Virus record (IMG/VR): IMGVR_UViG_3300042146_000099
Span: 1 to 64,000 of that record
Direction: 5' to 3' (one strand)
From: a virus
DNA length: 64,000 nt
A program made the translations under genes and the position numbers. The notes beneath the pieces are model-generated. The model saw only the letters and a list, made by a program, of their open reading frames with translations, did no database searches and was not told where the DNA came from. The stretch's first letter is position 1. Every line of letters begins with the position of its first letter. This document shows, one piece after another, positions 29,503 to 49,666 of this stretch.

Positions 29503-29922
29503 TCATGGCCAGTCCTCCTTATATCCGGGCCTGTCAGCGTATGGGAGGGCCATCTCGCGGACGGTCTGTTTCGCGAAGTGCACAAGACGCGGGATGCCGG
29601 ACAGCATCTCCTCCTCGCAGCGGATGAGCATGCGCCTCTTGGCGTCGATCTCGCGCAGGACACGCGCCGGATCATGACGGGCGATGAATGCCGCCTGCCG
29701 CGCGCCGAGCGGGTTCAAATCATGACGCGTCGGCAGCCCGCTCTCCGGGTCGGTGTCGTACTCCAGCACGGGATTGCCCATGTCGTCGTAGATCGCGCCA
29801 TCACCCCGTTCGTGAGCGATCAGTTCCCAGCAGTCCCCGCCGTCCTGCCGTGCCGCACGCGCGGCCGCTTCTTCGGCGTCGAGCTGGGTGCTGAGCCAGC
29901 GCACAAGATCCTCCACGATCAC
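29503..29922 (-). CDS. DUF6221-like actinophage protein
   Basis: AFIARHDPARVLREIDAKRR...ALPYADRPGY.EDW. Confidence 0.8.
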   Translation of the reverse strand: MIVEDLVRWLSTQLDAEEAAARAARQDGGDCWELIAHERGDGAIYDDMGNPVLEYDTDPESGLPTRHDLNPLGARQAAFIARHDPARVLREIDAKRRMLIRCEEEMLSGIPRLVHFAKQTVREMALPYADRPGYKEDWP

Positions 29923-30440
29923 CCCTCCGACTCCTGCTGCGCCTTCTTCTTCGCCCGGTCAGCCTTGGCCCGTTGCGCCGTACTCACGCCCTTGCTGATC
30001 TGCTGGGCGCGCTCCGGCGTGACACCGTAGGGCGTGATCACGACCAACGGCTTCCTCTGCCTAGTCACAACGATGGGCATGCCTGACTCTGCCACCTGAT
30101 CGATGGTCCCTCCCGCCCCCAGCGTGAAGCGCGAGATCGGCAGCACCTCGCCGGGAGGCGCGCCGTGTACAGCGTGCACCCAGCGGACGGACGCCACGTT
30201 GTAGCGGGGGTGCTCCTCGTGGATCACACGCTGCTCCTCGGCCCACGCCGCCTCGCGGTCCGGAAGCCACCGGATCTCCTTGGTCGAAACTTCCGGCCAC
30301 CATTCCTTGTCGGCCTTGTGATCCGCGAAGCGCGTCTTGATGTCGTAGGTGATACCCACATACAGCAGCGTCTCGTCAGCGTCATAAAGCCGGTATACGG
30401 CTGTCTCGCGGGGGCCGCTGGATCGGTTCGGTACAGTCAA
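29919..30440 (-). CDS. GIY-YIG nuclease-like domain fused to a Phd/YefM-like domain (copy 1)
   Basis: TAVYRLYD...LLYVGIT...RF..H...E...I..EHPRYN; C-terminal IDQVAESGMPIVVTRQRKPLVVITP. Confidence 0.78.
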   Translation of the reverse strand: MTVPNRSSGPRETAVYRLYDADETLLYVGITYDIKTRFADHKADKEWWPEVSTKEIRWLPDREAAWAEEQRVIHEEHPRYNVASVRWVHAVHGAPPGEVLPISRFTLGAGGTIDQVAESGMPIVVTRQRKPLVVITPYGVTPERAQQISKGVSTAQRAKADRAKKKAQQESEG

Positions 30441-30509
30441 GGCAGTGCCTTCCTTGCTTGGTTCGGCGCTTCACAGCCCGAGTGGCCTGGACCGCCGCTC
30501 GGGCTTCTC

Positions 30510-30812
30510 TCATTCCTCAGCAGGCTTCTTCCGGGGCTTCGTGCCCCACGCGCTGCCGTGGCCCCGCTCGATGTTCTGGACGACTCCGAGAGGCAGCTTC
30601 AGCCGGGCGGCGATCTTCCGATACGAGATCTCCTGCGCGCGCATCAGCTCGATCGCCTGCCGCTGGAACTCGCGCAACTCGGGCGCCCGCTCCTTGTAGC
30701 TGGCCAACACCTCGCTACTCACCACGGCGCGCTCGATCGGGTCCTCGATCTCGTCGATCTCTCTCAGAGCGTCGATCACCTTGCGCGCCTCCTCGGTGAC
30801 GTCGTCGATCAT
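30510..30812 (-). CDS. HTH regulator divergent from the transfer operon
   Basis: ISYRKIAARLKLPLGVVQNIERG. Confidence 0.75.
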   Translation of the reverse strand: MIDDVTEEARKVIDALREIDEIEDPIERAVVSSEVLASYKERAPELREFQRQAIELMRAQEISYRKIAARLKLPLGVVQNIERGHGSAWGTKPRKKPAEE

Positions 30813-30849
30813 TCCCGTCCTCCCAATGGGGCGGGCCACTTGCCTCAGT

Positions 30850-30865
30850 GTATGCCATGGCATAC
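30850..30865. promoter_or_regulatory. Perfect 16-bp palindrome GTATGCCATGGCATAC (candidate operator)
   Basis: Lies in the divergent intergenic region. Confidence 0.6.
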
Positions 30866-30984
30866 GCTCGGATCGAGGGGCCAGCCCAAGGTTCCTCAGC
30901 ACCAACAGGAATGCCCCGGACAGGAGTTCGCACCTCCTGCCGGGGCCAGCCATCCCCCTGCCGTGAACAGGAAGGACAGCCACC

Positions 30985-31185
30985 GTGGATCGTAACGGCC
31001 AGCCGCAAGCCGGGCCCAGCCCCCGCGCCATCGCCATCCGCAACGCCGCCGACGCGGCCAACGCCTACCAGGCCAGCCCGGACACGTACACGCTGCACCG
31101 CATGCAGTCCGCCGTACAGACCGCGCAAAACCTCGGCGCCACCCTCCGCGACATCCGCGCCGCACGCCCGGCGGTGACCTCGTGA
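30985..31185 (+). CDS. Small hypothetical protein
   Basis: AAGGA RBS; AQNLGATLRDIRAA resembles the C-terminus of 31544-31735. Confidence 0.6.
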   Translation: MDRNGQPQAGPSPRAIAIRNAADAANAYQASPDTYTLHRMQSAVQTAQNLGATLRDIRAARPAVTS

Positions 31186-31283
31186 CCTGCTGCGGCCGAC
31201 CCCTCCAGCGCGACGGCCAGCAACTTGTCTGCGGACGCTGCGCCGCCTGGTACGACCCCGGCACCCAAGGAGCCGACCGATGA
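31182..31283 (+). CDS. 33-aa Zn-ribbon peptide
   Basis: Hand translation MTCCGRPLQRDGQQLVCGRCAAWYDPG...; coupled at both ends. Confidence 0.55.
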   Translation: MTCCGRPLQRDGQQLVCGRCAAWYDPGTQGADR

Positions 31284-31468
31284 GCGGCACCTACCCGTAC
31301 ACCCACACCTGGGACGAGGACGGCATCCAACGCCAAGCCCAAATCCACCTCGCCGACAACGGCAGCGAAGCCGTCTGGGACCCACGCACCCCCGGCGACT
31401 CCTACCCGTGGCAAGACCTCGACAACGAGAACCGCCGCCACAGCGACAGCGAAATCACCACCCTCTGA
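31280..31468 (+). CDS. Small acidic protein
   Basis: AAGGAG RBS; ATGA overlap. Confidence 0.6.
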   Translation: MSGTYPYTHTWDEDGIQRQAQIHLADNGSEAVWDPRTPGDSYPWQDLDNENRRHSDSEITTL

Positions 31469-31543
31469 ACCCCCCAAGACCGCCGCGCGCCCAGTACCAC
31501 CCCCCGGCTGGGCGCGCGGCCTCGACTCCGAGAGGACCCCGCC

Positions 31544-31735
31544 ATGGGACTCAGGAACACCGTCGCCTTCGCCGCCACCCACGTCGCGGCCCAAGCCGCG
31601 CTGGACGCCGAAAACGCCGCCCCCGAAGACACGGCCGCGCTCACCCAGAAGGCGGAAGAGAAAGCCGCCCGCGCCGTCAGCCTCGGCGTAACCCCTGAGG
31701 ACATCGCCGCCGCCACCAGCCTGCGCCGCCACTGA
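31544..31735 (+). CDS. Small hypothetical protein
   Basis: GAGGA RBS. Confidence 0.6.
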   Translation: MGLRNTVAFAATHVAAQAALDAENAAPEDTAALTQKAEEKAARAVSLGVTPEDIAAATSLRRH

Positions 31736-31772
31736 CCGGCTGCCCGATCCGCCCATCCGAGAGGAACCCGCC

Positions 31773-31916
31773 ATGGACAAGAAGGTCACGATCTACGAAT
31801 CCGACGGCGACGTCATCGAAACCAAGACCAGCGACGACGACACCGCCGCCGCCTACGAAGACCTGCCCTTCCAAGTCGGCCACATCACCCGCGTCGACGT
31901 GACCGACGCCGACTGA
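31773..31916 (+). CDS. 47-aa acidic peptide (MDKKVTIYESDGD...)
   Basis: Hand translation; GAGGA RBS. Confidence 0.6.
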   Translation: MDKKVTIYESDGDVIETKTSDDDTAAAYEDLPFQVGHITRVDVTDAD

Positions 31917-31933
31917 AGCGACGAGGACCCGCC

Positions 31934-32347
31934 ATGACCGACACCATCGAAGCCATCCGCTACACCGCCGATGTCGTCGTCACCACCACCGACGGCCACG
32001 TCCTCCTCATCGAACGCGGCTGGGACCCCCACAAGGGCGCGTGGGCGCTGCCCGGCGGCCACGTCGACCCCGGCGAGACGTCCCGCACGGCCGCCGCTCG
32101 CGAGCTGGCCGAAGAGGCCGGCGTGCACGCGGCACCCACCGAACTCGTCCAGGTCGGTGTGTTCGACCAGCCCGGCCGTGACCCGCGCGGCCGGTACGTC
32201 ACCGTCGCCTACCAGCTGACCGTCATCCCCGGAACGATCACCGAGCCGGGTGACGACGCGGTGCGCGCCGAATGGTGGCCGCTGAACGCCCTTCCCCGGC
32301 TGGCGTTCGACCACGCCGACATCCTCGCCGCCGCCCTCCAGAACTGA
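31934..32347 (+). CDS. Nudix hydrolase (as found in AICE/pSAM2-type transfer regions)
   Basis: Nudix box GGHVDPGETSRTAAARELAEEAGV; RDPRGR; LAFDH. Confidence 0.93.
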   Translation: MTDTIEAIRYTADVVVTTTDGHVLLIERGWDPHKGAWALPGGHVDPGETSRTAAARELAEEAGVHAAPTELVQVGVFDQPGRDPRGRYVTVAYQLTVIPGTITEPGDDAVRAEWWPLNALPRLAFDHADILAAALQN

Positions 32348-32442
32348 CCGACTGGCGGTAGCCCACGGCCCACGTCCCAACCGGTACGCGGGCCCTGGAA
32401 ATCCACCAGCCACCACCGCACCAACCCGAAAGGAGCCCCGCC

Positions 32443-33378
32443 GTGACCAGTCGACAGCCGGCCACTGAGCGCCGCTTCACGACTCTCACCCCGATCGCCC
32501 TGGTCTTCACCGCGGTGTCGCTGTGCTGGACTGGCTGGTCTATCACCGACCTGATCGAGTCCGGCGCCTGGGGCATCCTCGCCGCCGTGTCCGTCGACGG
32601 CCTGTGGGGAGTCGTCCAGTACCTCTCCTACAAGCGGATCGGCGGCCGAACCATCGAGGTCGTGGAATGGGTGACGCTCGTCGTCGCCTGCGCCCTCCTC
32701 GCCTGGCACGGCTGGACCATCACCCCGGCCGCGGCGTTCGCCGGCGCGCTCCCCCCGATCGTCGCGAAGATCTCGTGGGTCGGGGACATCCGGCTGCGCA
32801 TCCTGCGCTCTTACGATCCGACCGCGCTGACTGCGGAGCAGGAAGCCGAGATCAACGACGTTATCCGCGACAGCGAGTACCAGGCCCGCCTGAAGGCCGC
32901 GCAGATCGAGCGGGAGGCTGCGGAGGACATCGCCGCGATCCGCGCCAAGGGCAAGGTCGACATGGAACGCCTTGAGGTCGACTTCGAGGTGGGCATCAAG
33001 GAGATCACCACGCGGGCCGACCTGAAGCGGCGGACTCCGGTCACGATCGACGATCAAGGCGCCGAGCGCGCCGAACCCGAACCCGGCCCGGTGGTCGCCG
33101 CGCTCACCGAACAGTTCGCGAGTCTGCGGTCCGTCCTCGGCGAACTCGCTCGCGATCGCACCGCCGAACTCGACCCGAACCCGCTGGTCAACACGGCGAA
33201 TCAGGTTCGCGAACCCGTCGCGAGCGTGGCCGATCTCGCTCGCGATTTCGTCGGGAAGATGAGCGACAACAAGCACGTAACGGAAGCGATCATGCGCGTC
33301 CGTCCGGAGGCCAACCGGGACTCCGTTGCCGCCGCCGTCCGCAAGGCGCGCAAGACAGCCGAAGGGCCGTACCTGTGA
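32443..33378 (+). CDS. SpdB-like multi-TM spreading/transfer protein
   Basis: About 4 N-terminal TM helices, coiled coil, low-complexity linker and basic C-terminus; lies upstream of TraB. Confidence 0.65.
   Translation: MTSRQPATERRFTTLTPIALVFTAVSLCWTGWSITDLIESGAWGILAAVSVDGLWGVVQYLSYKRIGGRTIEVVEWVTLVVACALLAWHGWTITPAAAFAGALPPIVAKISWVGDIRLRILRSYDPTALTAEQEAEINDVIRDSEYQARLKAAQIEREAAEDIAAIRAKGKVDMERLEVDFEVGIKEITTRADLKRRTPVTIDDQGAERAEPEPGPVVAALTEQFASLRSVLGELARDRTAELDPNPLVNTANQVREPVASVADLARDFVGKMSDNKHVTEAIMRVRPEANRDSVAAAVRKARKTAEGPYL
33072..33246 (+). repeat. Co-oriented 8-bp repeats CGAACYCG (clt-like locus)
   Basis: Copies at 33072, 33078, 33141, 33165, 33176 and 33210; five TCGCGA palindromes interleaved. 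Confidence 0.55.
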
Positions 33379-33674
33379 CCAAGCCGACGCTCCTCCTCGT
33401 GTCCGTGGCCGGCCTCCTCGCCGCCGCGATTGCCGCCTCGTGGTTCCCCAGCAGCCCGCTCCTCGCGGCCGTCGCCGGGTATTGCGCGGTCGTCGGGTCG
33501 CTCGCCCACGCCACCGGCGCTCCCGTGTGGCGGACCGTCGGCGCGTCCTGCCTGCTGCTCGCCGCGACGCTCGCCCTGCTCCTGAAGGCGCTGCGGCACC
33601 TGATCGACCTGACCCTGTGGATCCTCGGCGCCACCAGCGCCGTTGCCCTCACCGCTGCGAAGGCCACCGCATGA
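33375..33674 (+). CDS. Small multi-TM (Spd-like) protein
   Basis: Almost wholly hydrophobic; coupled to both neighbours. Confidence 0.6.
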   Translation: MTKPTLLLVSVAGLLAAAIAASWFPSSPLLAAVAGYCAVVGSLAHATGAPVWRTVGASCLLLAATLALLLKALRHLIDLTLWILGATSAVALTAAKATA

Positions 33675-35626
33675 ACACCCCCAACGCCCCGGTGTACACG
33701 CCGATCCCGATGACGATGACGGCCGACGGCGCCACCGCCCAGTACAAAATCCCAGGTCACGGCCTTGCGGTGTCGTCGTCGTCATCGTCGTCGTCACGCC
33801 GGACCTGGAACCGCTGCCTGTACTGCGCCACCACCTTCGGCCAGTGGATCGCACGCCGCCGCTACGAACTCGCCCCCGCCGCCGGCACCAGCCTGATCAC
33901 CACGCTCGGCCTCGCCCAAGACGGAATGGGCGCAGCCCTCGCCTACGGCACCCTCGCCGCCGGAGCCGGTGCCGCCGCTCTCGCCGGCCTGAAGCACAAG
34001 AACCCGCTCGTCACACACGTCGGGGCCGCCGGATTCATCGCCCTCGCCGACATCACCACCGCGGTCACCGCCGGGTTCTCGTGGCCGACCGCGACCGCCT
34101 GGGCCCTGTCCACGGGCGCCGCGTACGGGGTGTACGGGCCGTGGCTCGCCACCCAGCGCAACGCCCGAATGAAGCTGCACGTCGACACCGTCAAAGCCAA
34201 GGGCGCCGTCCCCGAGGCGCTCGGCCTGGAAGCCGCCGACCCCGGCCTGACCGGAGCGTCCCCCGAGGAGACAGCGCTGCGCCGCGGCTTCCACGCCCTC
34301 ACCGGCGCCGTACCGCTCGCCGTCACTGCGTTCCACCGCATGGCCGACGGCTCCTGGTCGTGCCTGCTGAAGACGCCGCCCGGGAAGAACACCGCGCCCG
34401 CCCTGCTGGCGAAGCGAGCCCAGCAGCTGCAGGCCAACATGGGCGTGCCCGGCAAGCTCACTCTCGCCGAGGGCCCGGAAGCGAACGACTTGATCGTCAA
34501 GGTCGCCATGTCCGACGCGCTCGCCGCCACCCTCACCGTCACCGACACCGGCGTCACCACCTGCCGCGAACCCGTCCTCCTCGGCCGCGACGAAGACAGC
34601 AACGAGTTCCTCCTCACCTTGCTGTACCGGCACACCCTCGTGGCCGGCGCCTCCGACTGGGGGAAGTCCGGCATCGTCAACCTCATCCTGAAGCGCCTGA
34701 ACCGGTGCACGGATGTGGACCTGTACGGCATCGACATGAAGCCCGGCGCGCCCGAGCTTGGGCCGTGGCGCGGCCGGATGAAGAAGCTGGCGACCACGAA
34801 GGAGGAAGCCCGCGCGCTGCTGCTGTGGCTCCGCGGTGAGTGCCAGCGGCGTGGCGCGATCCTGGAGGCGCTGTCGAAGCAGGCGATGGCTGAGGGTCGG
34901 GGCCCGGTCCGTAAGTGGATTCCCGGCGTTCACGGGCCTGCGATCTTCGTGGTCACCGACGAGCTCGCCGAGCTGGTCCGCCAGGATCCGGAGCTCGCTG
35001 AGATCTACGAGTCGCTGCTGGCCATCATGCGGTTCCTCGCCATGCAGTGCGTGTCCGCGACCCAGCAGCCGTCCCGGAAAGTCTTCGGCGGGTCCACCGA
35101 CGCCCGCGGCAACTACGGCAACCGCATCTCCACCCGCGCCGGCGAGGCCGGGCACGCGCCGCTCATCTTCGGGCAGGGGTGCCAGAAGAACGGGTGGCGG
35201 CCGGAGCTCCTCGACCTGCCGGGGAAGTTCCTCGCCCAGACCCCGGAGCACGACACCCCGCGTGTGTACCGGGCCGAGTACGTGTCCGACACCGACATCG
35301 CGGCGGAGGTCGGCTTCTACTACTCCGACATGCGGGACACCGAGGAACAGCCCGCGATCACCGACGAGCCATGGGTGAAGATCTTCGCCGACCCGAAGTT
35401 CCCCGACGGCACACCGTGCACCGCAGGCCAGTGGCGGGACCTGTACCGCGTGTTCGCCGACATGAAGGACGGGGCGACGAAGAAGGAACTCGCCGAGGCG
35501 TGCAACATCAGCCGGGACACGGCGATGCGCGCGATCGACGAGTGGACCAAGCACGGGGTGTTGGAGCGCCGCGATGGCCGCTCCCGTCGCTACTACCTGC
35601 CCGGAGCCACCAATGAGTCTGCCTGA
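33671..35626 (+). CDS. traB: TraB-like FtsK/SpoIIIE DNA translocase
   Basis: N-terminal TM helices, Walker A AGASDWGKS, IDMKPG, Walker B VVTDE, ATQQP, C-terminal winged HTH. Confidence 0.85.
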   Translation: MNTPNAPVYTPIPMTMTADGATAQYKIPGHGLAVSSSSSSSSRRTWNRCLYCATTFGQWIARRRYELAPAAGTSLITTLGLAQDGMGAALAYGTLAAGAGAAALAGLKHKNPLVTHVGAAGFIALADITTAVTAGFSWPTATAWALSTGAAYGVYGPWLATQRNARMKLHVDTVKAKGAVPEALGLEAADPGLTGASPEETALRRGFHALTGAVPLAVTAFHRMADGSWSCLLKTPPGKNTAPALLAKRAQQLQANMGVPGKLTLAEGPEANDLIVKVAMSDALAATLTVTDTGVTTCREPVLLGRDEDSNEFLLTLLYRHTLVAGASDWGKSGIVNLILKRLNRCTDVDLYGIDMKPGAPELGPWRGRMKKLATTKEEARALLLWLRGECQRRGAILEALSKQAMAEGRGPVRKWIPGVHGPAIFVVTDELAELVRQDPELAEIYESLLAIMRFLAMQCVSATQQPSRKVFGGSTDARGNYGNRISTRAGEAGHAPLIFGQGCQKNGWRPELLDLPGKFLAQTPEHDTPRVYRAEYVSDTDIAAEVGFYYSDMRDTEEQPAITDEPWVKIFADPKFPDGTPCTAGQWRDLYRVFADMKDGATKKELAEACNISRDTAMRAIDEWTKHGVLERRDGRSRRYYLPGATNESA

Positions 35627-36050
35627 GCCCTACCAGCGCTACGCACACCCGCCCGTCGTCACGCCGGCCAACGTCGAGCTGTACACGGAGCGGCCCCCGA
35701 TCGCCTGGGTTGCTGACCCCCGTGACCCGTCCCTGTCTGTGCCGATTGATGCCCGGCTCATTCAGAGGCCGGAGCCTGCACCGCCGCGGGATTTGACCCC
35801 GCAGCCTCTGTTCGACCCGCTGGCGCAGCGTCTCCTCGCTGGCGGGCTCGGTGTCGGTGCCGCGGGTGCTGGTGTCGGGTTCGGCCTCGGCCAGTTGGCG
35901 GCCGGGTTTGCGTTGATGGGGACGAGTGGGCTGGCGCTGCTGGTCGGCCTGTTGCTGGCGGCCAGCGTGCGGGGTGGGTCGGTGACGCATGTCCGGCAGG
36001 AGGTCCACAACCATGCGAAGTGGTTCGGGAGGAACACGACGAACCTGTGA
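35613..36050 (+). CDS. Membrane protein following TraB
   Basis: Pro-rich N-terminus, Gly-rich TM pair. Confidence 0.65.
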   Translation: MSLPEPYQRYAHPPVVTPANVELYTERPPIAWVADPRDPSLSVPIDARLIQRPEPAPPRDLTPQPLFDPLAQRLLAGGLGVGAAGAGVGFGLGQLAAGFALMGTSGLALLVGLLLAASVRGGSVTHVRQEVHNHAKWFGRNTTNL

Positions 36051-36073
36051 GCGTGCCACACTGAAAGCCCCCT

Positions 36074-36106
36074 GGCCTCGCCGCGTCCCCCCGTCGCGGC
36101 GAGGCC
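36074..36106. terminator. Hairpin between convergent operons
   Basis: GGCCTCGCCGCG-N9-CGCGGCGAGGCC. Confidence 0.6.
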
Positions 36107-36306
36107 GCCTCACATCCGGGAGCCCCTCATGGTCGTCACGATCAAACCCCGTCCGCCGGCCGCCGCGTTGCCGCGTCCGGTGGTGCCTCTCGCGAGGGTG
36201 GTGCCGCGTCCGACAGCTCGGCGGGGTGCGTCGTTCACGTCGGCGTTGTAGCCGTCTACGAGTAGGCCCCGCACCGGTCCGGGCGGGGCTTTCGTCATGC
36301 GGTGAG

Positions 36307-36707: not shown

Positions 36708-37011
36708 TGGCGCTCCGTTCCGGGCAGGTGCGTGGGTCTTCCCCGTCGCACGCCTCGCACCAGTGCTGGATCACCGCGAGCGGCGCCTGACACAGGCAGT
36801 CCTCGCCGGGGCACTCCTCGATCTCCGCGCGGCAGCACTGGTGCACGAGGTGCCACGCCAGCTCCGGCCAGTCCGGCGGGTACTGGGTATCGCAGTCACC
36901 GCCGACGCCTTGGCAGCGCGGCCACGAGTCCTCCTCGCGCGGCGGCAGGTTGTCCCACGGCAGCGGCGACAGCCATGAGGGGCGTTCGGGGGTCTCGCTG
37001 GTCGTGGTCAT
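36694..37011 (-). CDS. Cys-rich hypothetical protein
   Basis: ATGA overlap; many Cys. Confidence 0.55.
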   Translation of the reverse strand: MTTTSETPERPSWLSPLPWDNLPPREEDSWPRCQGVGGDCDTQYPPDWPELAWHLVHQCCRAEIEECPGEDCLCQAPLAVIQHWCEACDGEDPRTCPERSASVQG

Positions 37012-37496
37012 GCGGTCGGCTCCTCGTTCGTGCCGTACACCTCGTCGTGCGTTAGCAGACCCATGGCGAGTGCCTCAACCGCTGCGTCGTAGTTCTCGGG
37101 CGACATAACGACTCCGGCAACCTTGCCTCGCCGCGTGATCGCAACGTCCCTGCCGCCGAACTGGGTCGCGTCCAAGAGGTCAGAGATTCGGAGTCGGGCT
37201 TGCGACTGAGTCAGCGCGTCCGGAATGGGGAAGTGTGTGGCGACCAGGCTCGTTCGGGCGCCTGCCGTGTTGTATAGCGGCTCCTCTGCCTGGACGGCCG
37301 AGCGTTCTGCCTTCTCTGCCGCTTCTCGGTCGGGGTGCCATTCCACCGTGCGACGCCGGACCAGCGACCACCACGGCTTGTCGGAGGCGTGCTGCGTCCA
37401 CCGGATCTCTGGCTGCGTACTGATGCCGACATAGAGCAGCGCTCCGCCGTCGTCGTAGAGGCGGTACAGGGCGGTGCGCTGACTTGAGGTCGTCAC
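37008..37496 (-). CDS. GIY-YIG nuclease-like domain fused to a Phd/YefM-like domain (copy 2)
   Basis: TALYRLYD...LLYVGIS...RW..H...E..AV..EEPLYN; SQARLRISDLLD...VAITRRGKVAGVVMSPENYD. Confidence 0.8.
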   Translation of the reverse strand: MTTSSQRTALYRLYDDGGALLYVGISTQPEIRWTQHASDKPWWSLVRRRTVEWHPDREAAEKAERSAVQAEEPLYNTAGARTSLVATHFPIPDALTQSQARLRISDLLDATQFGGRDVAITRRGKVAGVVMSPENYDAAVEALAMGLLTHDEVYGTNEEPTA

Positions 37497-42962: not shown

Positions 42963-43402
42963 GCCACCCCTGCACCCGCCCCGAATGCGGTGCTCAGCTG
43001 CACACCGACCCGTGGGGCGTCCCCGTCCAATGCCCCCACACCGAGCCCGTAGCCGACACGGGGCGGCGTTGCCCGCGCTGCGACTGCCCCGACGGGCACG
43101 AGCAGTGCGAACACTGCAAGGTCTGCCCGCACGCAGGCGGAAGCTGTACGGACCCTGACGACGACGCGCGTGCCCGAGCAGAGAAAGCCGAGGCCGCCAT
43201 CACCCGCGTACGCGAAGTGCTCGCCGAGCGCCTCGCCGAAGTCGCCGAACGCGAGGCCGACGGCATGCTGCCCTTCGGCACGCCGGGCGCCTCCTGGTGC
43301 GACGCGGTCACCGTCACCTGCGCCCGCATCGAAGACGCCCTCCGCCCGAAGACGGCAGCCACGGGCGTACCAGCCGAACCGGACCCGCAGGAGGCGCCGT
43401 GA
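42959..43402 (+). CDS. Cys-rich hypothetical protein
   Basis: ATGA overlap. Confidence 0.6.
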   Translation: MSHPCTRPECGAQLHTDPWGVPVQCPHTEPVADTGRRCPRCDCPDGHEQCEHCKVCPHAGGSCTDPDDDARARAEKAEAAITRVREVLAERLAEVAEREADGMLPFGTPGASWCDAVTVTCARIEDALRPKTAATGVPAEPDPQEAP

Positions 43403-43548
43403 ATACCGCCATCGCCATCACCGCGATCATCGCCGCCACGCTCGTCGCCAGCCAGATCATCACCGCTATCCGCGACGTGGCCAAAGCCAAGCACCAGCCC
43501 ACCCGCGAGCAGCACGCGCGCGACAACAGCAAGGAGAACGAGGCATGA
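43399..43548 (+). CDS. Small single-TM protein
   Basis: AGGAGG RBS; hydrophobic N-terminus. Confidence 0.55.
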   Translation: MNTAIAITAIIAATLVASQIITAIRDVAKAKHQPTREQHARDNSKENEA

Positions 43549-44501
43549 AGGTACTGGTCACCGGCGGCAGCGGCTTCATCGCCTCATGGATCCGCCGCGA
43601 ACTCACCACACGCGGCCACCACATCCTCGTCATGGACCACCAGGACCGCCGCCAGCATTTGGCGCCCGGTGAGGAGTTCTTCCTCGGCGACGTCCGCGAC
43701 GCCACCGCCGTCACCGAGGCCGCCGCCCACGTCGACGGCATCATCCACCTTGCCGCCGTCCTCGGCACCCAAGAGACCATCCACAACCCGCGCCCGTCCG
43801 CCGAGACGAACATCCTCGGCTCGCTGAACGTCTTCGAAGCGGCCGCCCAGTACAACCTGCCCACCGTGTACGCCGGGGTGGGCAACCACGCCTTCAGGCT
43901 CGTCGGAACCGGCTGCTACACGATCACCAAGAGCGCGGCCGAAGACCTGGCCCGCATGTACAACCTCTACCGCGACGGCGGCCGGATCACGATCGTCCGC
44001 CCCGTCAACGCCTACGGGCCCGGCCAGTCCATCGCCAAGCCGTATGGCACGAGCAAGGTGCGAAAAGTGATGCCAGCGCTGACCTGCCGCGCCCTCACCG
44101 ACACGCCCATCGAGGTCTACGGGGACGGCACCCAGGTGTCCGACTGCGTCTGGGTGAAGGACGTGGCGACGGCGTTCGTGGCCGCTTTGGAGCACACGGC
44201 AGAGTACGGCCACACCGAGCGGCCAGTGGAAGTCGGGCCCGCCAGCTCCGTGACGGTCAACGACATCGCGAGGATGGTGGCGGAGGAGGCCTCCAAGCAC
44301 ACCGGCCTTGCGCCGGTGGACATCGTGCACTTGCCCATGCGGCCCGGTGAAGTTCCGAACGCTGTGGTCAAGTCGGACGTGTCCACGCTCCAGCAGATCG
44401 GCCTGGACGCTGCCGATTTCTTGCCGCTCGAAGACGGCATTCGCCAGACCGTCGAGTACTACGCCACCGAGTGGTTGCCGGGATGGAGCCCGAGTCGATG
44501 A
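43545..44501 (+). CDS. NAD-dependent NDP-sugar epimerase/dehydratase (extended SDR) 1
   Basis: VTGGSGFIAS, HLAA, YTITK, RPVNAYGPGQ, VYGDGTQ, RPGE. Confidence 0.92.
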   Translation: MKVLVTGGSGFIASWIRRELTTRGHHILVMDHQDRRQHLAPGEEFFLGDVRDATAVTEAAAHVDGIIHLAAVLGTQETIHNPRPSAETNILGSLNVFEAAAQYNLPTVYAGVGNHAFRLVGTGCYTITKSAAEDLARMYNLYRDGGRITIVRPVNAYGPGQSIAKPYGTSKVRKVMPALTCRALTDTPIEVYGDGTQVSDCVWVKDVATAFVAALEHTAEYGHTERPVEVGPASSVTVNDIARMVAEEASKHTGLAPVDIVHLPMRPGEVPNAVVKSDVSTLQQIGLDAADFLPLEDGIRQTVEYYATEWLPGWSPSR

Positions 44502-44974
44502 CGACGGAAGTGGCGACGAGGCGCTGCCCCGACTGCAAGGAAACAAAGCCGCTCGATGAGTTCTACTACAACCCGAAGAGCACGCTCAAGACTCGAACCT
44601 CTTCCCACTGCAAGGTGTGTGCGCGACGGCGGGTCCGGGAGCACAACAAGCGCAACGCTGAAGCGATTAGCGAACGGCGTAAAGCCGCACGGCGGACGCC
44701 AGAAGGCCAACGCAAGAGCCGGGACCGAGACCTGCGGCGGCACTACGGCATTGGTCTCGTCGATCTGGAGCGGATGATCCGTGCGCAGGGAGGACGCTGC
44801 GCGATCTGCGAGGACGAGTTCGAGTCTGACAAGCACACGCACGTCGACCACTGCCACTTCAGGGGCACTGTCCGGGGCATCCTCTGCTCGTCGTGCAACC
44901 TCATGCTCGGGCACGCCAAGGACGACCAGCGGCGGCTTCTCGCTGCCGCTCAGTACCTGGAGCTGCCGTCATGA
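44498..44974 (+). CDS. Endonuclease VII-type HNH endonuclease
   Basis: RHYGI...QGGRCAIC...VDHCH...VRGILC..CN..LG. Confidence 0.9.
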   Translation: MTTEVATRRCPDCKETKPLDEFYYNPKSTLKTRTSSHCKVCARRRVREHNKRNAEAISERRKAARRTPEGQRKSRDRDLRRHYGIGLVDLERMIRAQGGRCAICEDEFESDKHTHVDHCHFRGTVRGILCSSCNLMLGHAKDDQRRLLAAAQYLELPS

Positions 44975-45984
44975 TGAAGGTCCACTTCTGGTCCGCCGAC
45001 ATGGCGGGTTCGGCATGGTACAGAGCCGTGATGCCCGCGATGGGCCTCTCCTGGCTCGGCCACACCGCCACCCACCACCCCCGCCTGCCCCGGAACTGGG
45101 AGTCGTACGACACGATCGTCGGCTGCCGCGTCGCCCAGACCAGCCCGTCGAAGATGTGGTGGCACCTCAAGCAGGAGGGGAAGCGGCTCGTCCTCGACCT
45201 TGACGACGACTACTTCCACATCGACCCGTCCAACGCTGCCGCGGTGCGCGTGTGGGATCGGGACATGCTCGGCCGGCTGGCCCACAACATGGGCGTCGCG
45301 GATCTCGTGACGTGCTGCTCGGAGCCTCTCGCGGCCGTGCTGCGGGACTACGCGGAGAACGTTGTGGTCATTCCGAACGGTCTGCCCGCGCAGTATCTGG
45401 GCAAGCCACGCGACTACCGGGCTGACGACCGGCCGTTGTATGTGGGGTGGGCGGGGACAGCGTCGACGGTGGCCGAACTGCCGGAGGCGGTGCGCGCCCT
45501 GAACCGGATCTCGCAGTACCCGCGCCCCGGTGGGGTGATGGTGCGGCTGGTGGGGATCGATGCGAAGCAGGCGATGGGCCTTGGGTTGAAGGGCCGTCGG
45601 ATTGGTGCGCTCGGGTGGGTGGAGCGGGTGGAGCACTATCTGCAAGCCGTTGAGGAGTTCGACGTGTGGGTGGCTCCGTATCGGGATACGGCGTTCAACC
45701 GGGCGAAGTTCCCGACGAAGTGGCTGGAGTCCAGCGTTCTCGGCATTCCGTTGATCGCGTCGGATACGGAGGCGTACCGCGCGGTGATTCGGCATGGGGA
45801 GAACGGGTTCCTTGTGCGGTACGAGCACGAGTGGGGCCGCTATCTGAAGCAGCTAGTCGACGATCCCGACCTTCGTCAGCGGGTCGGTATGACGGCGCGG
45901 GGTGAGGCGTCGGGGAGCATCATGCAGGCGTTGCATCACCGGTGGGAGGACGCCGTACGCGTACCCGTGGAGGTGAGCACGTGA
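44971..45984 (+). CDS. Glycosyltransferase, GT-B fold (GT4-like)
   Basis: WYR...P, DLDDDYF, VIPNGL, GWAGT, FNRAK..TKWLE...GIPLIASD..AY...IRHGENGFL. Confidence 0.9.
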   Translation: MMKVHFWSADMAGSAWYRAVMPAMGLSWLGHTATHHPRLPRNWESYDTIVGCRVAQTSPSKMWWHLKQEGKRLVLDLDDDYFHIDPSNAAAVRVWDRDMLGRLAHNMGVADLVTCCSEPLAAVLRDYAENVVVIPNGLPAQYLGKPRDYRADDRPLYVGWAGTASTVAELPEAVRALNRISQYPRPGGVMVRLVGIDAKQAMGLGLKGRRIGALGWVERVEHYLQAVEEFDVWVAPYRDTAFNRAKFPTKWLESSVLGIPLIASDTEAYRAVIRHGENGFLVRYEHEWGRYLKQLVDDPDLRQRVGMTARGEASGSIMQALHHRWEDAVRVPVEVST

Positions 45985-46556
45985 CCTCCCCCGACTGGAC
46001 GATGGCCGTGTCCCTGCACGCGGCTGACGGGCCGGGAATGGCCCGCTTCACCTGTGTCCCCCGTGACAGTGATCTGCTCGTGACTGGCGTAGTGGAAGCC
46101 ACCGACCACGGCATCGTCATCACATCCATGGAGTTCTCCACGCAGGCCCCTTCCGGCATCACGGCGACCACGAACCGTTCCTTCCGCCTCGGCGAGCTGC
46201 TCGCCTACCTCCGCACCGCGCGGGAACTGGACGAAACACGGCGTGCCCTCGGTCTGCACCAGAGCGCCGCCGAGCCAACCGCCGTGTCCCCTGAAACGAC
46301 CTTGCGACCCCGACGGGGTGGGCGCCCTGCCGTGGGCGACGAGACCCTCCGCGCGCTGGCGGTCGCGTACTTGGAGGAGTGCGCGCACGGCAAGCCAGCG
46401 GGATCTGTGGCGAGAGTCGCCAGTCGCTTCGGCCGTCCAGAAGAGACCATCCGCACGTGGCTCGCCCGTGCCCGGAAAGAGGGCTGGCTGACCGCTGGAG
46501 TCAGGGGCAGGCGAGGAGCCGAAGCAGGGCCGCGCCTGCGAGAGGAGAAGGCGTGA
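45981..46556 (+). CDS. DUF6214-like protein with C-terminal HTH (paralog 1)
   Basis: LRALAVAYL...VARVASRFG...TIRTWLARARKEGWL. Confidence 0.7.
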   Translation: MTSPDWTMAVSLHAADGPGMARFTCVPRDSDLLVTGVVEATDHGIVITSMEFSTQAPSGITATTNRSFRLGELLAYLRTARELDETRRALGLHQSAAEPTAVSPETTLRPRRGGRPAVGDETLRALAVAYLEECAHGKPAGSVARVASRFGRPEETIRTWLARARKEGWLTAGVRGRRGAEAGPRLREEKA

Positions 46557-46810
46557 CCGCCGAACTGCCCTGCTGCCAGGGTCTGCCAGAGCACACGTAC
46601 GGGACTGAGTGCCTGCACCACCGCGAGGAGTCGTTCGACATCAGCACCGAGGACGGGCGAAAGGCTCTCGCCCGGAAGATGGCGGACGACTGGCGGGAGA
46701 ACGGCGGGGTGCTGCCCCCTGGCGTCACCTACATCCGGCTGGAGCCCGGCGAGCACATCCTCAGCGGGGAAGACATCCGCCGTCTCCTCGAAGGTGAGGA
46801 GGACCAGTGA
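46553..46810 (+). CDS. Hypothetical protein
   Basis: GTGA overlap. Confidence 0.55.
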   Translation: MTAELPCCQGLPEHTYGTECLHHREESFDISTEDGRKALARKMADDWRENGGVLPPGVTYIRLEPGEHILSGEDIRRLLEGEEDQ

Positions 46811-47301
46811 TCCACATCCCCATCACAGACAGTGCACTGCCCGGCGTCGAAGCCACCTTCTCCTACGCCCTCCGAGGGGACACCCTCGCTCTGATCGAAG
46901 TACGCATAGCGGCAGCAGGCACCGTATCCGTGCCCGCCATTCAGGAAATGCCGCTCAGCCGCTGGGAAAAGCGGGCTTGGGGTACTGCGATGAGGCGGCT
47001 CCTAGCAGCTGAGGAGACACCGGAGCGCCGCGTTCTCGCACGGCATCCGCAACTGGCGAACGTCACGCACGGCAACGCCCTCCGGCGCTGGAAGTCCCTG
47101 GTGCACCTCGCCAGCGTTGCAGCCGAGTACGCAGATGCGATGGAAGCGGGCGCCAGCAACCCAGCCCAGACCGTTGGGCACCGGCACAACGTTTCAGCGG
47201 CCACCGTACGTGGCTGGCTGCACCGTGCACGCAGGGAGGGTCTCGCGCCAACAAGCACACACCCCAACGCGGTGGGCAGCAGGAAGGACGGCAACGCGTG
47301 A
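46807..47301 (+). CDS. DUF6214-like protein with C-terminal HTH (paralog 2)
   Basis: LASVAAEY...PAQTVG...VSAATVRGWLHRARREGL. Confidence 0.7.
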   Translation: MIHIPITDSALPGVEATFSYALRGDTLALIEVRIAAAGTVSVPAIQEMPLSRWEKRAWGTAMRRLLAAEETPERRVLARHPQLANVTHGNALRRWKSLVHLASVAAEYADAMEAGASNPAQTVGHRHNVSAATVRGWLHRARREGLAPTSTHPNAVGSRKDGNA

Positions 47302-47507
47302 CGGGCCCGGAGCATTACCGCGAAGGCGAGGAGCGGCTACGCGCCAGCGACTACCAGCGCGCGCAAGCAGGCGACGAAGGCGACCTCACCACCGCCATCC
47401 ACGAAGCCGCCATGGCCCAAGCCCACTTCACAGCCGCGCTCGTCGCGCTCCTCGCCTACGACCGGCAACCCGACAGCGTCGCCTGGCAGAAGGCGGTCGG
47501 CTGGTGA
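47298..47507 (+). CDS. Conserved small actinophage protein
   Basis: MTGPEHYREGE.RL...AQAHFTAAL. Confidence 0.7.
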   Translation: MTGPEHYREGEERLRASDYQRAQAGDEGDLTTAIHEAAMAQAHFTAALVALLAYDRQPDSVAWQKAVGW

Positions 47508-47815
47508 GTAACAAGATGACCTGCCTGGGTTGCCAGTCGCATACGTCAGCGGTCCTCACCGCCTACGAAGACGGCGAGCCGTGCCCCTACTGCAAGCTGT
47601 CCGCCGCCGCGACCTTGGAGATCCAGACCATCCGCAGGGCGCGCGCCGACGATGAACTGAAGGCGAAGCTGGAGCAGGCGATCAAGGAGCGCGACGAGGC
47701 GCAGCGGGAACGCGACTGGGCGAAGCAGCGTCTCGCCCACGTCGAGAGCGAACTCACCGACCTTGTGGAACGGATCCGTCGACCGCTCAGCGATGAACCG
47801 GGGAGCGTCTGGTGA
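47504..47815 (+). CDS. Zn ribbon plus coiled-coil protein
   Basis: CLGC...CPYC then heptads. Confidence 0.6.
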   Translation: MSNKMTCLGCQSHTSAVLTAYEDGEPCPYCKLSAAATLEIQTIRRARADDELKAKLEQAIKERDEAQRERDWAKQRLAHVESELTDLVERIRRPLSDEPGSVW

Positions 47816-48681
47816 ACATTCTCGTCACTGGTGCGGCCGGATTCATCGGCAGCCACCTCGTCCGCGCCCTGGAAGCGCGCGGGCACACGATCACCGGCAT
47901 GGACAAGCGGAACGGACTGCCCACCACGGACCTTTCCCAGCTCCGGCGCACCGTGGACACCGCCGAGCCCGACGTGATCGCGCACCTCGGCGCCTCCTGC
48001 TCCACCTCGGTGAGCCTCGCCGATCCGGCCAGTGACTTCACGGACAACGTGGTGGGCACCTTCAACATCGCGGAAGGCGCACACCGGGCGGGCAACATCC
48101 CCGTCGTCTACACCAGCAGCGTCAAGGTCCACCCCGGCGCTGATGGGCTCACCGCCCCCCTCGGCCTGTCCAAAGCCGTCGGCGAGGACTACCTCCGCCT
48201 CTACCGCGAGCTGTACGGGCTGCCGTCCGTCATCCTCCGGCCCTCCACCGTCTACGGGCCCGGCCAGAACGGCAGCGCCGAAGCAGGCTGGGTGACGTGG
48301 TTCCTGCGCGCCTTCTGCGACCGCAAGCCCATCACCATCCACGGCGACGGCAGCCAGTCCCGGGACATCCTCTACATCGACGACTTCACGAGTCTCCTTG
48401 TCGACATAGTCGAGCACCACGCCGACTACGCGACCGCGACCGAGCCGTACGACGTCGGCGGCGGCCCCGACAACGAACTCGAACTCCTGCAACTCGTGAA
48501 CGCCCTCGAAATCGAGACCGGCACCCGGCACCCCGTCACCCACGACAAGCGCCTCCCCGGCGACCTCCAGCGCGTCGTCACCGACAACGCGGCCATCACC
48601 GCCGTACGCGGCTGGACACCCACCACCCACTGGTTCGACGGCATCCGGGAGACGCTCAACTGGATCGGAGAACAGTGGTGA
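47812..48681 (+). CDS. NAD-dependent NDP-sugar epimerase/dehydratase-like protein 2 (catalytic Tyr replaced by Leu)
   Basis: VTGAAGFIGS, YTSS, PLGLSK at the YxxxK position, RPSTVYGPGQ, GDGSQSRD. Confidence 0.88.
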   Translation: MNILVTGAAGFIGSHLVRALEARGHTITGMDKRNGLPTTDLSQLRRTVDTAEPDVIAHLGASCSTSVSLADPASDFTDNVVGTFNIAEGAHRAGNIPVVYTSSVKVHPGADGLTAPLGLSKAVGEDYLRLYRELYGLPSVILRPSTVYGPGQNGSAEAGWVTWFLRAFCDRKPITIHGDGSQSRDILYIDDFTSLLVDIVEHHADYATATEPYDVGGGPDNELELLQLVNALEIETGTRHPVTHDKRLPGDLQRVVTDNAAITAVRGWTPTTHWFDGIRETLNWIGEQW

Positions 48682-49436
48682 AAGTCGGCGTCATCATCCC
48701 CGCCCGCAACGCAGGCGAGTGGATCGAGGAGATGCTCATCTCGATCCAATCCCAGACACATTCCGCGCGGGCATACATCGCCGAAGACTGCGGCAGCGAT
48801 GGCACCTACGCATGGCTACGTCGGCGCCCTGACCTGTGGGCGGGACTGCGGCGGAACCGGAAACGGCTCGGCTGGGCCGGCAGTCTCAACGCCGCCGCGA
48901 AGCTTGCGCTCAACGATGGCTGTGACGCCGTGTTCACCGCGTCCGCCGACGACAAGCTGCATCCCGAGTGCATCGCCCGCTGCGTGTCCGCCCTCAACGC
49001 CGACGGCGGCCGAGACTTCGTCATCCCGCACGCGAAGCAGTTCGGTGAAGCCGACCACGTCCAAGCCAGCCTCCCGGACGCCGACCTCGACGACCTTGTG
49101 CGCTGGCCGCCGCTGATCGACAAGGGCCTGTTCCGGCGTGAGACGTGGGAGCGAGTGGGCGGCTACAGCGCGAAGGCGACGCCGTCGGGCACGTACGGGA
49201 CGGCGGAGGACTGGGACTTCTGGATCCGCGTCTGGAAGGCCGGGCTCACCCGCTACGCGGTCGTCGAGCAGCCGCTGTATCTCGTGCGCGTCCATCCCGG
49301 CCAACTGTCCGACACTCGCGGCGAGTATCACGCGGCGACCGTGGATCTGCTTCGGCGGCTGCATCCGGATCTGCCGTGGCCGGACGACGCGCACGTCTGG
49401 CCACCACGACACCGCACCACAAGGAGGACGCCTTGA
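48678..49436 (+). CDS. Glycosyltransferase family 2
   Basis: VIIPARNA, EDCGSDGT, SADD, VGGY...EDWDFWIR. Confidence 0.92.
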   Translation: MKVGVIIPARNAGEWIEEMLISIQSQTHSARAYIAEDCGSDGTYAWLRRRPDLWAGLRRNRKRLGWAGSLNAAAKLALNDGCDAVFTASADDKLHPECIARCVSALNADGGRDFVIPHAKQFGEADHVQASLPDADLDDLVRWPPLIDKGLFRRETWERVGGYSAKATPSGTYGTAEDWDFWIRVWKAGLTRYAVVEQPLYLVRVHPGQLSDTRGEYHAATVDLLRRLHPDLPWPDDAHVWPPRHRTTRRTP

Positions 49437-49666
49437 GCGTCAACATGCACGCCATCCTCGTCGGCCTCCTGTCCGTCAGCCACACGCGCGAACAGGCTGA
49501 CCACGCGGCGCGAACGGTCCTGGACCAGCACGCTCACGAACTCGCCAAGCAGATCCGCGCGGCATCCATCAGCTGGGGGCGGGTCCCGGACATGGACGCC
49601 GACGACGCTGCCGACCTCATCGACCCGAAGGCGCAGCGCGCCAGCACCGAAGGAGACACCCCGTGA
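49433..49666 (+). CDS. Small phage protein
   Basis: AAGGAGG RBS; HAHELAKQIR...AADLIDP. Confidence 0.6.
   Translation: MSVNMHAILVGLLSVSHTREQADHAARTVLDQHAHELAKQIRAASISWGRVPDMDADDAADLIDPKAQRASTEGDTP

Follow-up and report, generated by a model that had tools for sequence, protein, structure and literature searches.

What use has an integrating, tailed phage for a DNA pump of the kind that Streptomyces plasmids employ in transfer? The question is raised by positions 30510-36106 of a 64,000-nucleotide stretch (hereafter the window), which comprises bases 1-64000 of one 73,469-bp contig, IMG/VR virus record IMGVR_UViG_3300042146_000099. A first-pass annotation had described this region as a Nudix-Spd-TraB module carried by a possible hybrid of a phage and an actinomycete integrative and conjugative element (AICE), and every element that it listed is found between 30510 and 36106. 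Judged from sequence and predicted structure, the module is a TraB/Tra-like pump accompanied by an SpdB-type protein and two small membrane proteins, under a divergent, repressor-like helix-turn-helix (HTH) protein (Table 1). The reading proposed here is that a plasmid-type transfer module, native to a phage lineage, would allow phage double-stranded DNA (dsDNA) to spread within or between hyphae without a capsid, and this is given an even chance of being correct.

The argument begins with the ATPase. Since the region is about 70% GC, genes were called by third-position GC content (GC3), and the start of the ATPase was placed at 33671 because the high-GC3 frame switches and the start codon overlaps the stop of the 99-residue gene in an ATGA. 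The protein matches PF01580 in Pfam (26.0 bits against a cut-off of 24, residues 320-451) and phrog_1358 in PHROGs (E = 2e-20). Its Walker A motif is GASDWGKS, and an alignment of 35 homologues shows no variation in Walker A (G326-S333) or in Walker B (D430, E431). An AlphaFold2 (AF2) model built with 35 homologues (pLDDT 76) contains five helices at residues 42-177, followed by an alpha/beta region, a RecA-like motor, and a winged helix at 589-642 with the order helix-helix-helix-strand-strand. The FtsK alpha/beta motor spans approximately residues 198-540, and the C-terminal HTH matches (594-641) all lie under the Pfam cut-offs. The top Foldseek matches are the FtsK motors 6t8o and 2iut (E ~2e-15), with TcpA, the coupling protein of pCW3 conjugation, also recovered (6o1w, E = 4e-15); TcpA is the sole relative in the PDB found by sequence (E = 3e-4).

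The C-terminal winged HTH of the first-pass annotation is thus borne out by the AF2 model, whereas its N-terminal transmembrane (TM) segments are borne out as helices but not as strongly hydrophobic ones. No N-terminal segment reaches a Kyte-Doolittle value of 1.5 (peaks of 1.46-1.47), and the helices between residues 68 and 160, with 0-1 charged residue each, are weakly hydrophobic, which is why the ATPase is described here as putatively membrane-anchored. Plasmid Tra proteins combine a membrane region, a motor, and a winged helix within about 600-800 aa, and the ATPase shows this layout, its membrane region being a predicted one. The correspondence with pIJ101 Tra is close in length (648 aa against 651 aa in the window), in the Pfam match of the motor (311-493 against 320-451), and in the position of the C-terminal domain (MarR-like HTH at 594-631 against the winged HTH at 597-640), with 24% identity over 261 aa.

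Phylogeny places the ATPase with plasmid Tra proteins. A maximum-likelihood tree of ATPase cores (33 rows, 304 columns; IQ-TREE, LG+C20) included the window protein, eight of 120 listed homologues (43-85% identity), five related loci, Gilgamesh gp10, one of five ~130-kb plasmids, YDN12 gp71, pZL12.71c, Coruscant, BtCS33, pIJ101 Tra, pFP1 Tra, six further plasmid proteins, Klebsiella FtsK, and four FtsK-family genes of one Streptomyces genome (G001), whose EccC-type genes were left out. Chromosomal FtsK (Klebsiella, Streptomyces G001, and one copy on a 19-kb plasmid) parts from all other rows with support of 99/99. The window ATPase belongs to a 16-row clade (98/98) with Gilgamesh gp10 and the copy on a 132.6-kb plasmid, and this clade nests in a 25-row group (81/89) that holds pIJ101 Tra and pFP1 Tra. 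The small AICE-type proteins (433-572 aa) form a separate clade (100/100). YDN12 gp71 (L022:2425-4485) is sister to pIJ101 Tra (L019:3897-5843) at 100/100, and the Coruscant protein is sister to the pFP1 Tra group at 100/99; the long branches of ZL12, BtCS33, and p7 are unsure in their own placements. Phage and plasmid translocases are interleaved, and more than one transfer between the two kinds of element is therefore indicated. The placements of YDN12 and Coruscant imply that Streptomyces phages took up plasmid translocases of at least three clades.

The view that the ATPase is of the plasmid Tra/TraB type and not a chromosomal FtsK is supported by the 99/99 split together with the pIJ101 Tra layout. 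Identity with chromosomal FtsK was rejected on the separate clade and on the lack of a strongly hydrophobic four-TM anchor and of a long linker. The FtsK of Streptomyces G001 has at least 877 aa and hydropathy peaks of 2.0-2.8, whereas the window ATPase peaks at 1.47 in 651 aa.

Spd-type companions had also been expected, and of the two multi-TM proteins one, the 311-residue protein, is genuinely homologous to SpdB. Its profile, built from 28 homologues, aligned with pIJ101 SpdB over 149 columns, colinear from the N-terminus (hhalign 96.5%, E = 7.8e-10), and pairwise BLASTP gave 25% identity (E = 0.002). The AF2 model (pLDDT 73.6) shows helices at 15-38, 42-63, 68-93, and 95-123, then a 67-residue helix (131-197), a disordered linker (201-258), and a three-helix C-terminal domain. 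The four predicted helices and the long helix fit the published account of SpdB2 of pSVH1, a four-TM protein that oligomerises, binds DNA, forms pores, and is essential for intramycelial spreading (PMC4447253). Translational coupling is reported for spd operons (PMC4447253), and in the window the spdB-like stop overlaps the start of the 99-residue gene (33375-33378), whose own stop overlaps the ATG of the ATPase (33671-33674). A complex prediction for translocase residues 40-300 with the 158-residue protein gave a score of 0.00 (mark 0.32).

The SpdB-like N-terminal region occurs in seven large Streptomyces phages and 12 Streptomyces plasmids. The 311-residue protein has no match at E 0.01 or better in the Pfam copy used, which is one without PF27080. 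Many SpdB-like homologues carry PF27080 as a precomputed family, and some also carry the winged-helix family PF13412 and are named transcriptional regulators at source. Identity with DUF2637 (PF10935) was rejected, as hhalign gave 2% against four DUF2637 proteins. A DUF2637 protein replaces the SpdB-like one at the same position in three related loci (L004, L005, and L014), and DUF2637 genes also flank Tra in the plasmids pFP1 and p7. Plasmids thus show the arrangement seen in the window: the gene order in pFP1 is a GntR gene divergent from small open reading frames (ORFs), DUF2637, and Tra, and in p7 it is Tra, a 98-aa gene, and DUF2637. In pSAM1, a GntR gene is divergent from small ORFs and an SpdB-like gene, in a GntR-controlled region that ends in a gene annotated as a conjugative DNA-transfer protein.

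Whether the module is proper to the phage or a recent arrival can be judged from 15 related loci (four genome loci and 11 viral-contig loci, with ATPase identity of 61-85%), of which L006, L007, L008, and L015 extend less than 10 kb upstream of the translocase. A near-full-length translocase frame is kept in all 15. The tblastn searches found the SpdB-like gene in seven loci, the 99-residue gene in eight, and the 158-residue gene in four; alignment adds three loci to the last family (at least 7/15), whose members follow the translocase in L002, L003, L004, L005, L006, L007, and L014. Annotation of 149 ORFs from six of the loci placed terminase, portal, or capsid genes, of two portal/capsid types, 4-10 kb downstream in five, while the capsid gene of the sixth (L011) lies elsewhere in its record. 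The flanks of the module differ among the related loci, and the ATPase clade has phage-linked members only, wherever the context was checked. On this comparison, the core is old and has been conserved across an entire lineage of Streptomyces phages and phage-plasmids.

An AICE was taken to be an att-bounded element of ~9-24 kb with int, rep, and tra together. Protein family scans of the flanks found no tyrosine integrase, xis, or rep gene beside the module, and the search for att-like direct repeats flanking it gave imperfect matches of 70-91% only. As the core also recurs in 15 loci, identity with an AICE was rejected. The earlier remark that this is not a complete AICE holds, and with int, xis, and rep absent nearby and no convincing att-like repeats it is not a decayed one either. 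Of the proposed phage/AICE hybrid, the transfer-type module in a phage stands; the synteny check speaks against a one-off fusion, as the core is conserved across the lineage.

The closest plasmid-borne relatives of the translocase are on five circular Streptomyces 'plasmids' of 129.7-132.6 kb (including NZ_CP107821.1, L020). The 132.6-kb record has an HK97-type capsid gene like that of Gilgamesh (129 kb), and the five look like Gilgamesh-type phage-plasmids filed as plasmids. The TerL_ATPase profile PF03354 was dropped as uninformative, having missed all five records searched, including the known phage Gilgamesh.

The idea that phage DNA may spread without virions is already known, through the precedent of pZL12 and through a suggestion made for the Spd homologues of phiC31 and VWB. 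The plasmid-phage pZL12/ZL12 (GQ919031) resembles the window in that a tailed-phage genome carries a tra gene of the FtsK/SpoIIIE type, next to genes for membrane proteins and together with a divergent regulator. Its Nudix protein is 64% identical to that of the window and is encoded 4.5 kb upstream of its FtsK-like gene. Conjugal transfer of pZL12 is reported to need tra and two adjacent genes (cited in PMC3583192), and its plasmid persistence and ParA/ParB have been reported (PMC4487206). However, pZL12 persists as a plasmid whereas the window phage has a serine integrase, the pZL12 regulator is of the GntR type, and its translocase is a distant, long-branch relative outside the window clade. 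SpdB2 homologues of phiC31 and VWB were suggested to help phage DNA spread (Thoma et al., 2015; PMC4447253). The suggestion covers only the Spd homologues, whereas the window also has a pump, and neither phiC31 nor VWB is among the seven phage matches of the 311-residue protein.

The plasmid pIJ101 (NC_001387), with korA divergent from tra, spdA, spdB, orf66, and kilB in that order, likewise sets a divergent repressor beside an operon of small membrane-protein genes. However, its spd genes lie downstream of the pump and those of the window upstream, the regulator families differ, and SpdA, orf66, and KilB have no detectable counterparts in the window. Gilgamesh gp10 and the ~130-kb plasmids share the translocase clade of the window (36-43% identity over 75-79% of the protein), and Gilgamesh gp9 belongs to the family of the 158-residue downstream protein (40% identity); in Gilgamesh, no SpdB-like or 99-residue gene is detected or annotated upstream, and the integrase is a tyrosine integrase. 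AICEs of the pSAM2 type also hold an FtsK-type Tra, Spd-type, and Nudix genes in one neighbourhood (PMC2440964, PMC3218068). In contrast to the window, AICEs have rep, xis, and int beside tra (in pSAM2: traSA, spd, pif, korSA, repSA, xis, and int), and the Nudix protein of the window is of a phage type that is not conserved with the module. The literature within reach, which excludes most subscription journals, yielded no report of a translocase being put to experiment in a Streptomyces phage that integrates.

The conservation of the module in phages implies that it is under selection there, and because the characterised relatives of its proteins all transport the dsDNA of their own replicon, both between and within hyphae, virion-free DNA movement is the most economical reading. 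In the proposed course of events, infection or induction would relieve the regulator, and the pump would form a ring in the hyphal membrane with its Spd-type partners. The pump would bind its presumed target, phage DNA, through the C-terminal winged helix, and unpackaged phage dsDNA would be driven across septal cross-walls into adjoining compartments, and possibly into touching hyphae. From a single entry event, phage DNA could thereby arrive in a larger share of the mycelium, or in a new host, with no virions involved. Large Streptomyces phages such as Coruscant, Tomas, Naboo, and Mandalore, which we take to be lytic, have annotated FtsK-like genes too, and spread across septa is for that reason the more general version. 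A bolder version appears rather doubtful: the excised circular genome would be pumped as naked dsDNA into other mycelium and then through its septa, lysogeny would be established by mating, independently of receptors and surface defences, and repeat arrays in the linker-coding sequence would be fast-evolving loading sites.

Known clt loci are clustered 7-9-bp direct repeats bound by the winged helix of the translocase (PMC3583192, PMC4447253). The candidate for a clt site in the window is an array of CGAACCCG, whose copies occupy codon phases 2, 2, 2, 2, 1, and 2. It is the densest 250-bp window for this motif in the genome, with six copies; a bin at ~14.5 kb also holds at least five. The clt-type motif of pSVH1 is GACCCGGA. 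At the same site, 0.4-1.0 kb upstream of the pump and within the sequence that encodes the disordered linker, most relatives carry other motifs in denser arrays; these motifs include GGACCG, GAGCGCCC, CGAACAC, and TCCGGACG, with up to ~30 copies.

Several results weigh against capsid-free spread, or against such arrays as its loading sites. The L012 and L014 translocases are 93% identical in the N-terminal part and 85% identical over the C-terminal 75 aa, yet their arrays differ (GGACCG and GAGCGCCC). The putative recognition helix, SRDTAMRAI[D/E]EW, varies little among the 15 loci, being near-identical in most and a close match in the others, so the linker motifs do not track the winged helix, and assignment of clt by co-variation was rejected. 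Shared 7- and 8-mer clusters were sought within 3.5 kb on either side of the translocase start in 14 loci, L013 (a near-duplicate of L009) and L015 (which has no upstream DNA) having been dropped; no family-wide motif cluster was found except a run of serine codons and CGAACCC in 6 of the 14. In L014 and L009 the arrays mostly hold one codon phase, and since they largely encode peptide repeats they may only reflect a low-complexity linker. Weighing on the same side are the weakly hydrophobic N-terminal helices of the ATPase, the moderate support (81/89) for joining the phage clade to plasmid Tra, and a tree without sequences from pSVH1, pSG5, pJV1, SLP1, and pSAM2. The companions fall short of the pIJ101 model as well, as hhalign gave 0.3% or less for the 99-residue protein against SpdA and orf66 and for the 158-residue protein against KilB, and neither Pfam nor NCBIfam places the regulator with the GntR-type repressors TraR and KorA. 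Finally, if the Coruscant-type phages are lytic, conjugation to a new host is unlikely as the general role of the family.

That the motif searches found no specific cis site for the phage's own DNA would also suit an exclusion or host-directed 'kil' function, in which the pump and its partners, made by the prophage or early in infection, would keep out or eject plasmid or phage DNA that enters, or would hold back host growth in the way of plasmid kil genes, instead of moving the phage genome itself. The module has its own divergent regulator and hairpin in the manner of a moron cassette, and in PHROGs the ATPase families are classed as 'moron, auxiliary metabolic gene and host takeover'. A toxic effect of unregulated traB, as part of a Kil-Kor system, has been reported (PMC4447253), and PADLOC gives a faint mad8 match for the ATPase (E = 8e-5). 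Exclusion is nevertheless considered unlikely, as PADLOC yielded no convincing match to a known defence family, every characterised relative transports the DNA of its own replicon (PMC4447253), and the conserved winged helix favours sequence-specific DNA handling. It has also to be asked whether a motor with the fold of FtsK, as identified by Foldseek, might act in segregation, through FtsK/SpoIIIE/SffA-like clearing or partitioning of phage or prophage DNA at closing septa, for instance so that spores and daughter compartments retain genomes that replicate or are in the plasmid state, or through dimer resolution. Members of the clade do reside on extrachromosomal elements (the 132.6-kb circular plasmid with a capsid gene and the relative Gilgamesh), and a published remark ties phage FtsK-like genes to Streptomyces development (PMC13587820). 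Yet the window phage encodes a serine integrase and showed no partition genes, the ATPase is split from chromosomal FtsK at 99/99 without the strongly hydrophobic four-TM anchor or long linker, and the link to SpdB favours spread over septal clearing, which leaves segregation distinctly improbable.

The invariant Walker A and B motifs in 35 homologues and the near-full-length frame in 15 of 15 loci are hard to reconcile with a passenger origin, in which the phage would have picked up a decayed AICE or plasmid transfer region that serves it no purpose. Such an origin could account for the orientation of the module, opposite to that of its immediate neighbours, for the variable flanks among relatives, and for the paralogous GIY-YIG/Phd-like genes on either side, which could mark a mobile cassette. 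However, the clade is phage-linked only, wherever its context was checked, neither int, xis, or rep genes nor att-like repeats adjoin the module, and the core keeps its place a few kb before the packaging genes across differing portal/capsid types; a passenger is accordingly given very little credence.

Capsid-free spread of phage dsDNA, the preferred reading, would mean that phages of filamentous bacteria are not confined to virions and that their DNA could cross cross-walls or even pass between mycelia. Views on host range and the spread of infection would change, as would those on the frequency of lysogens and on gene flow among Streptomyces in soil, and it would provide a testable reason for the annotation of FtsK-like translocases in several unrelated Streptomyces phage groups. 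As the phage here is complete and integrative, has both a pump and a protein demonstrably homologous to SpdB, and is closely related to prophages of cultured strains, the question is open to experiment.

Table 1. Features of the module, its flanks, and the wider phage genome (window positions unless a locus is named).
Feature	Position	Strand	Basis or remark
Serine integrase (serine recombinase)	5168-6523		Sole integrase found in the phage; 25 kb from the module
GIY-YIG/Phd-YefM-like fusion gene, left flank	29919-30440	-	
HTH regulator, 117 aa	30510-30863	-	Start by GC3; divergent from the operon
Perfect 16-bp palindrome GTATGCCATGGCATAC	30850-30865		Spans the regulator start codon; read from sequence
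GGCCAGCC, four exact copies	30879, 30944, 30997, 31071 (30879-31078)	+	Divergent control region and first small ORF
Small ORF 1, 66 aa	30985-31185	+	High GC3
Small ORF 2, 62 aa	31280-31468	+	High GC3
Small ORF 3, 63 aa	31544-31735	+	High GC3
Small ORF 4, 47 aa	31773-31916	+	High GC3
Nudix hydrolase, 137 aa	31934-32347	+	PF00293, 89 bits, E = 3.5e-25
SpdB-type spread protein, 311 aa	32443-33378	+	hhalign against pIJ101 SpdB; AF2
CGAACCCG array, clt candidate	33072-33217	+	Four exact and two one-mismatch copies, in the linker-coding part of the spdB-like gene
Membrane protein, 99 aa	33375-33674	+	Hydrophobic segments across residues 1-95
TraB/Tra-type dsDNA translocase, 651 aa	33671-35626	+	PF01580, phrog_1358, tree
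Membrane protein, 158 aa	35574-36050	+	Hydrophobic stretch 87-138; conserved neighbour downstream of the translocase
Terminal hairpin	36074-36085/36095-36106	+	12-bp perfect stem, 9-nt loop, GC-rich
GIY-YIG/Phd-YefM-like fusion gene, right flank	37008-37496	-	
NAD-dependent epimerase/dehydratase genes	43170-44501, 47812-48681		Within sugar block 43170-50562
Glycosyltransferase genes	44971-45984, 48675-49436		Within sugar block 43170-50562
Linker repeat arrays in relatives	L012:8990-9500, L014:9080-9420, L009:9330-9720, L002:9220-9500, L016:9380-9640		Hypervariable

The divergent regulator is a candidate kor-like repressor. An alternative upstream TTG at 31061 would extend it to 183 aa. Residues 62-100 give HTH_38 and Sigma70_r4 matches in Pfam, both sub-threshold (E ~1e-3), the NCBIfam matches to sigma-factor region 4 are far under their cut-offs, and the protein is 39% identical to the equivalently placed gene in L008. 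GntR regulators occur in pIJ101, pFP1, pSAM1, and pZL12. The palindrome GTATGCCATGGCATAC is a candidate operator, and the copies of GGCCAGCC may be binding sites of the divergent regulator; there are 10 plus-strand copies in the 73.5-kb genome, four of them within 200 bp, and this cluster is not conserved in the related loci. A consensus promoter scan returned 0 sites against 0.2 expected, such a scan being ill-suited to Streptomyces promoters.

Of 17 proteins of the module and its flanks, a Pfam scan (E 0.01 or better) left 11 without a family. The four small ORFs have no family match in Pfam, PHROGs, NCBIfam, or PADLOC; small ORF 1 recurs upstream of the module in L009, L013, and L016, and small ORF 4 in L003. 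At the other end of the operon, the 81-nt fold containing the hairpin has an energy of -35.3 kcal/mol (z = -2.96), and none of 200 shuffled sequences was as stable. The hairpin has no U-tract and is therefore not listed by a consensus terminator scan. The fusion genes on either side of the module, in the same orientation, are paralogues (35% identity, E = 2e-23) that join a GIY-YIG nuclease domain to a Phd/YefM-antitoxin-like C-terminus, and a role as homing-type nucleases in moving the cassette or marking its limits is possible.

The Nudix gene had been regarded as a usual companion of the pump, a claim that did not survive comparison: the gene was found in none of the 15 related loci, its closest relatives are of phage type, and an FtsK-like neighbour within 5 kb occurs in two of four phages inspected. 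The protein matches phrog_1198 in PHROGs (E = 1.4e-29), and its nearest relatives are phage genes, namely YDN12 gp65 (68%), Geonosis (67%), pZL12.76c (64%), and PIS 136 (54%). The FtsK-like gene lies 3-4.5 kb downstream of the Nudix gene in YDN12 and ZL12, and none is annotated within 7 kb of it in Geonosis or PIS 136. AICEs often carry Nudix genes, and in pSAM2 one of them, Pif, confers conjugal immunity (PMC2440964, PMC3218068). Linkage of the Nudix gene with the transfer genes is suggestive at best. The best NCBIfam alignments, all under cut-off, are to the ADP-ribose-pyrophosphatase (Nudix) half of NadM-Nudix enzymes, and the only PADLOC match is PDC-S07. The Nudix gene is read here as a separate accessory gene, with ADP-ribose or NAD-related nucleotides as its probable substrates.

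By its gene content, the genome around the module is that of a temperate, tailed, Streptomyces-type phage. The first ORF of the contig, an Rv2179c-like exonuclease, runs on from the contig end, which indicates a complete, circularly permuted genome. Besides the serine integrase, the genome encodes an HTH repressor-like protein, Rad52, an exonuclease, WhiB, an antirepressor, an HNH protein, and a DNA methylase, and the tail genes include one for a 1530-aa tape-measure-like protein. Beyond the window, the rest of the 73.5-kb genome encodes an HK97-type capsid, a scaffold, an SPP1-type portal, an amidase, and a terminase-like protein, the last ~52% identical to those of 68-69-kb Streptomyces phages such as Yara, Dryad, and Wentworth. 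A megablast search of 30400-36200 against phages gave no match. The stretch occurs in 12 listed runs, all of them DNA metagenomes and from the rhizosphere only.

Downstream of the module, the block at 43170-50562 is possibly a phage-encoded glycosylation system that would modify the virion, the DNA, or the host envelope. An endonuclease VII gene sits among its epimerase and glycosyltransferase genes, and L006, L008, and L011 also carry sugar genes of this sort downstream of the module. In L014, a 99-kb provirus contig, the region 2 kb downstream of the module (L014:13726-14796) holds a chalcone-synthase-like type III polyketide synthase and an MmyB-like regulator; a lone type III polyketide synthase is likewise reported on pZL12 and pSLE1 (PMC4487206).

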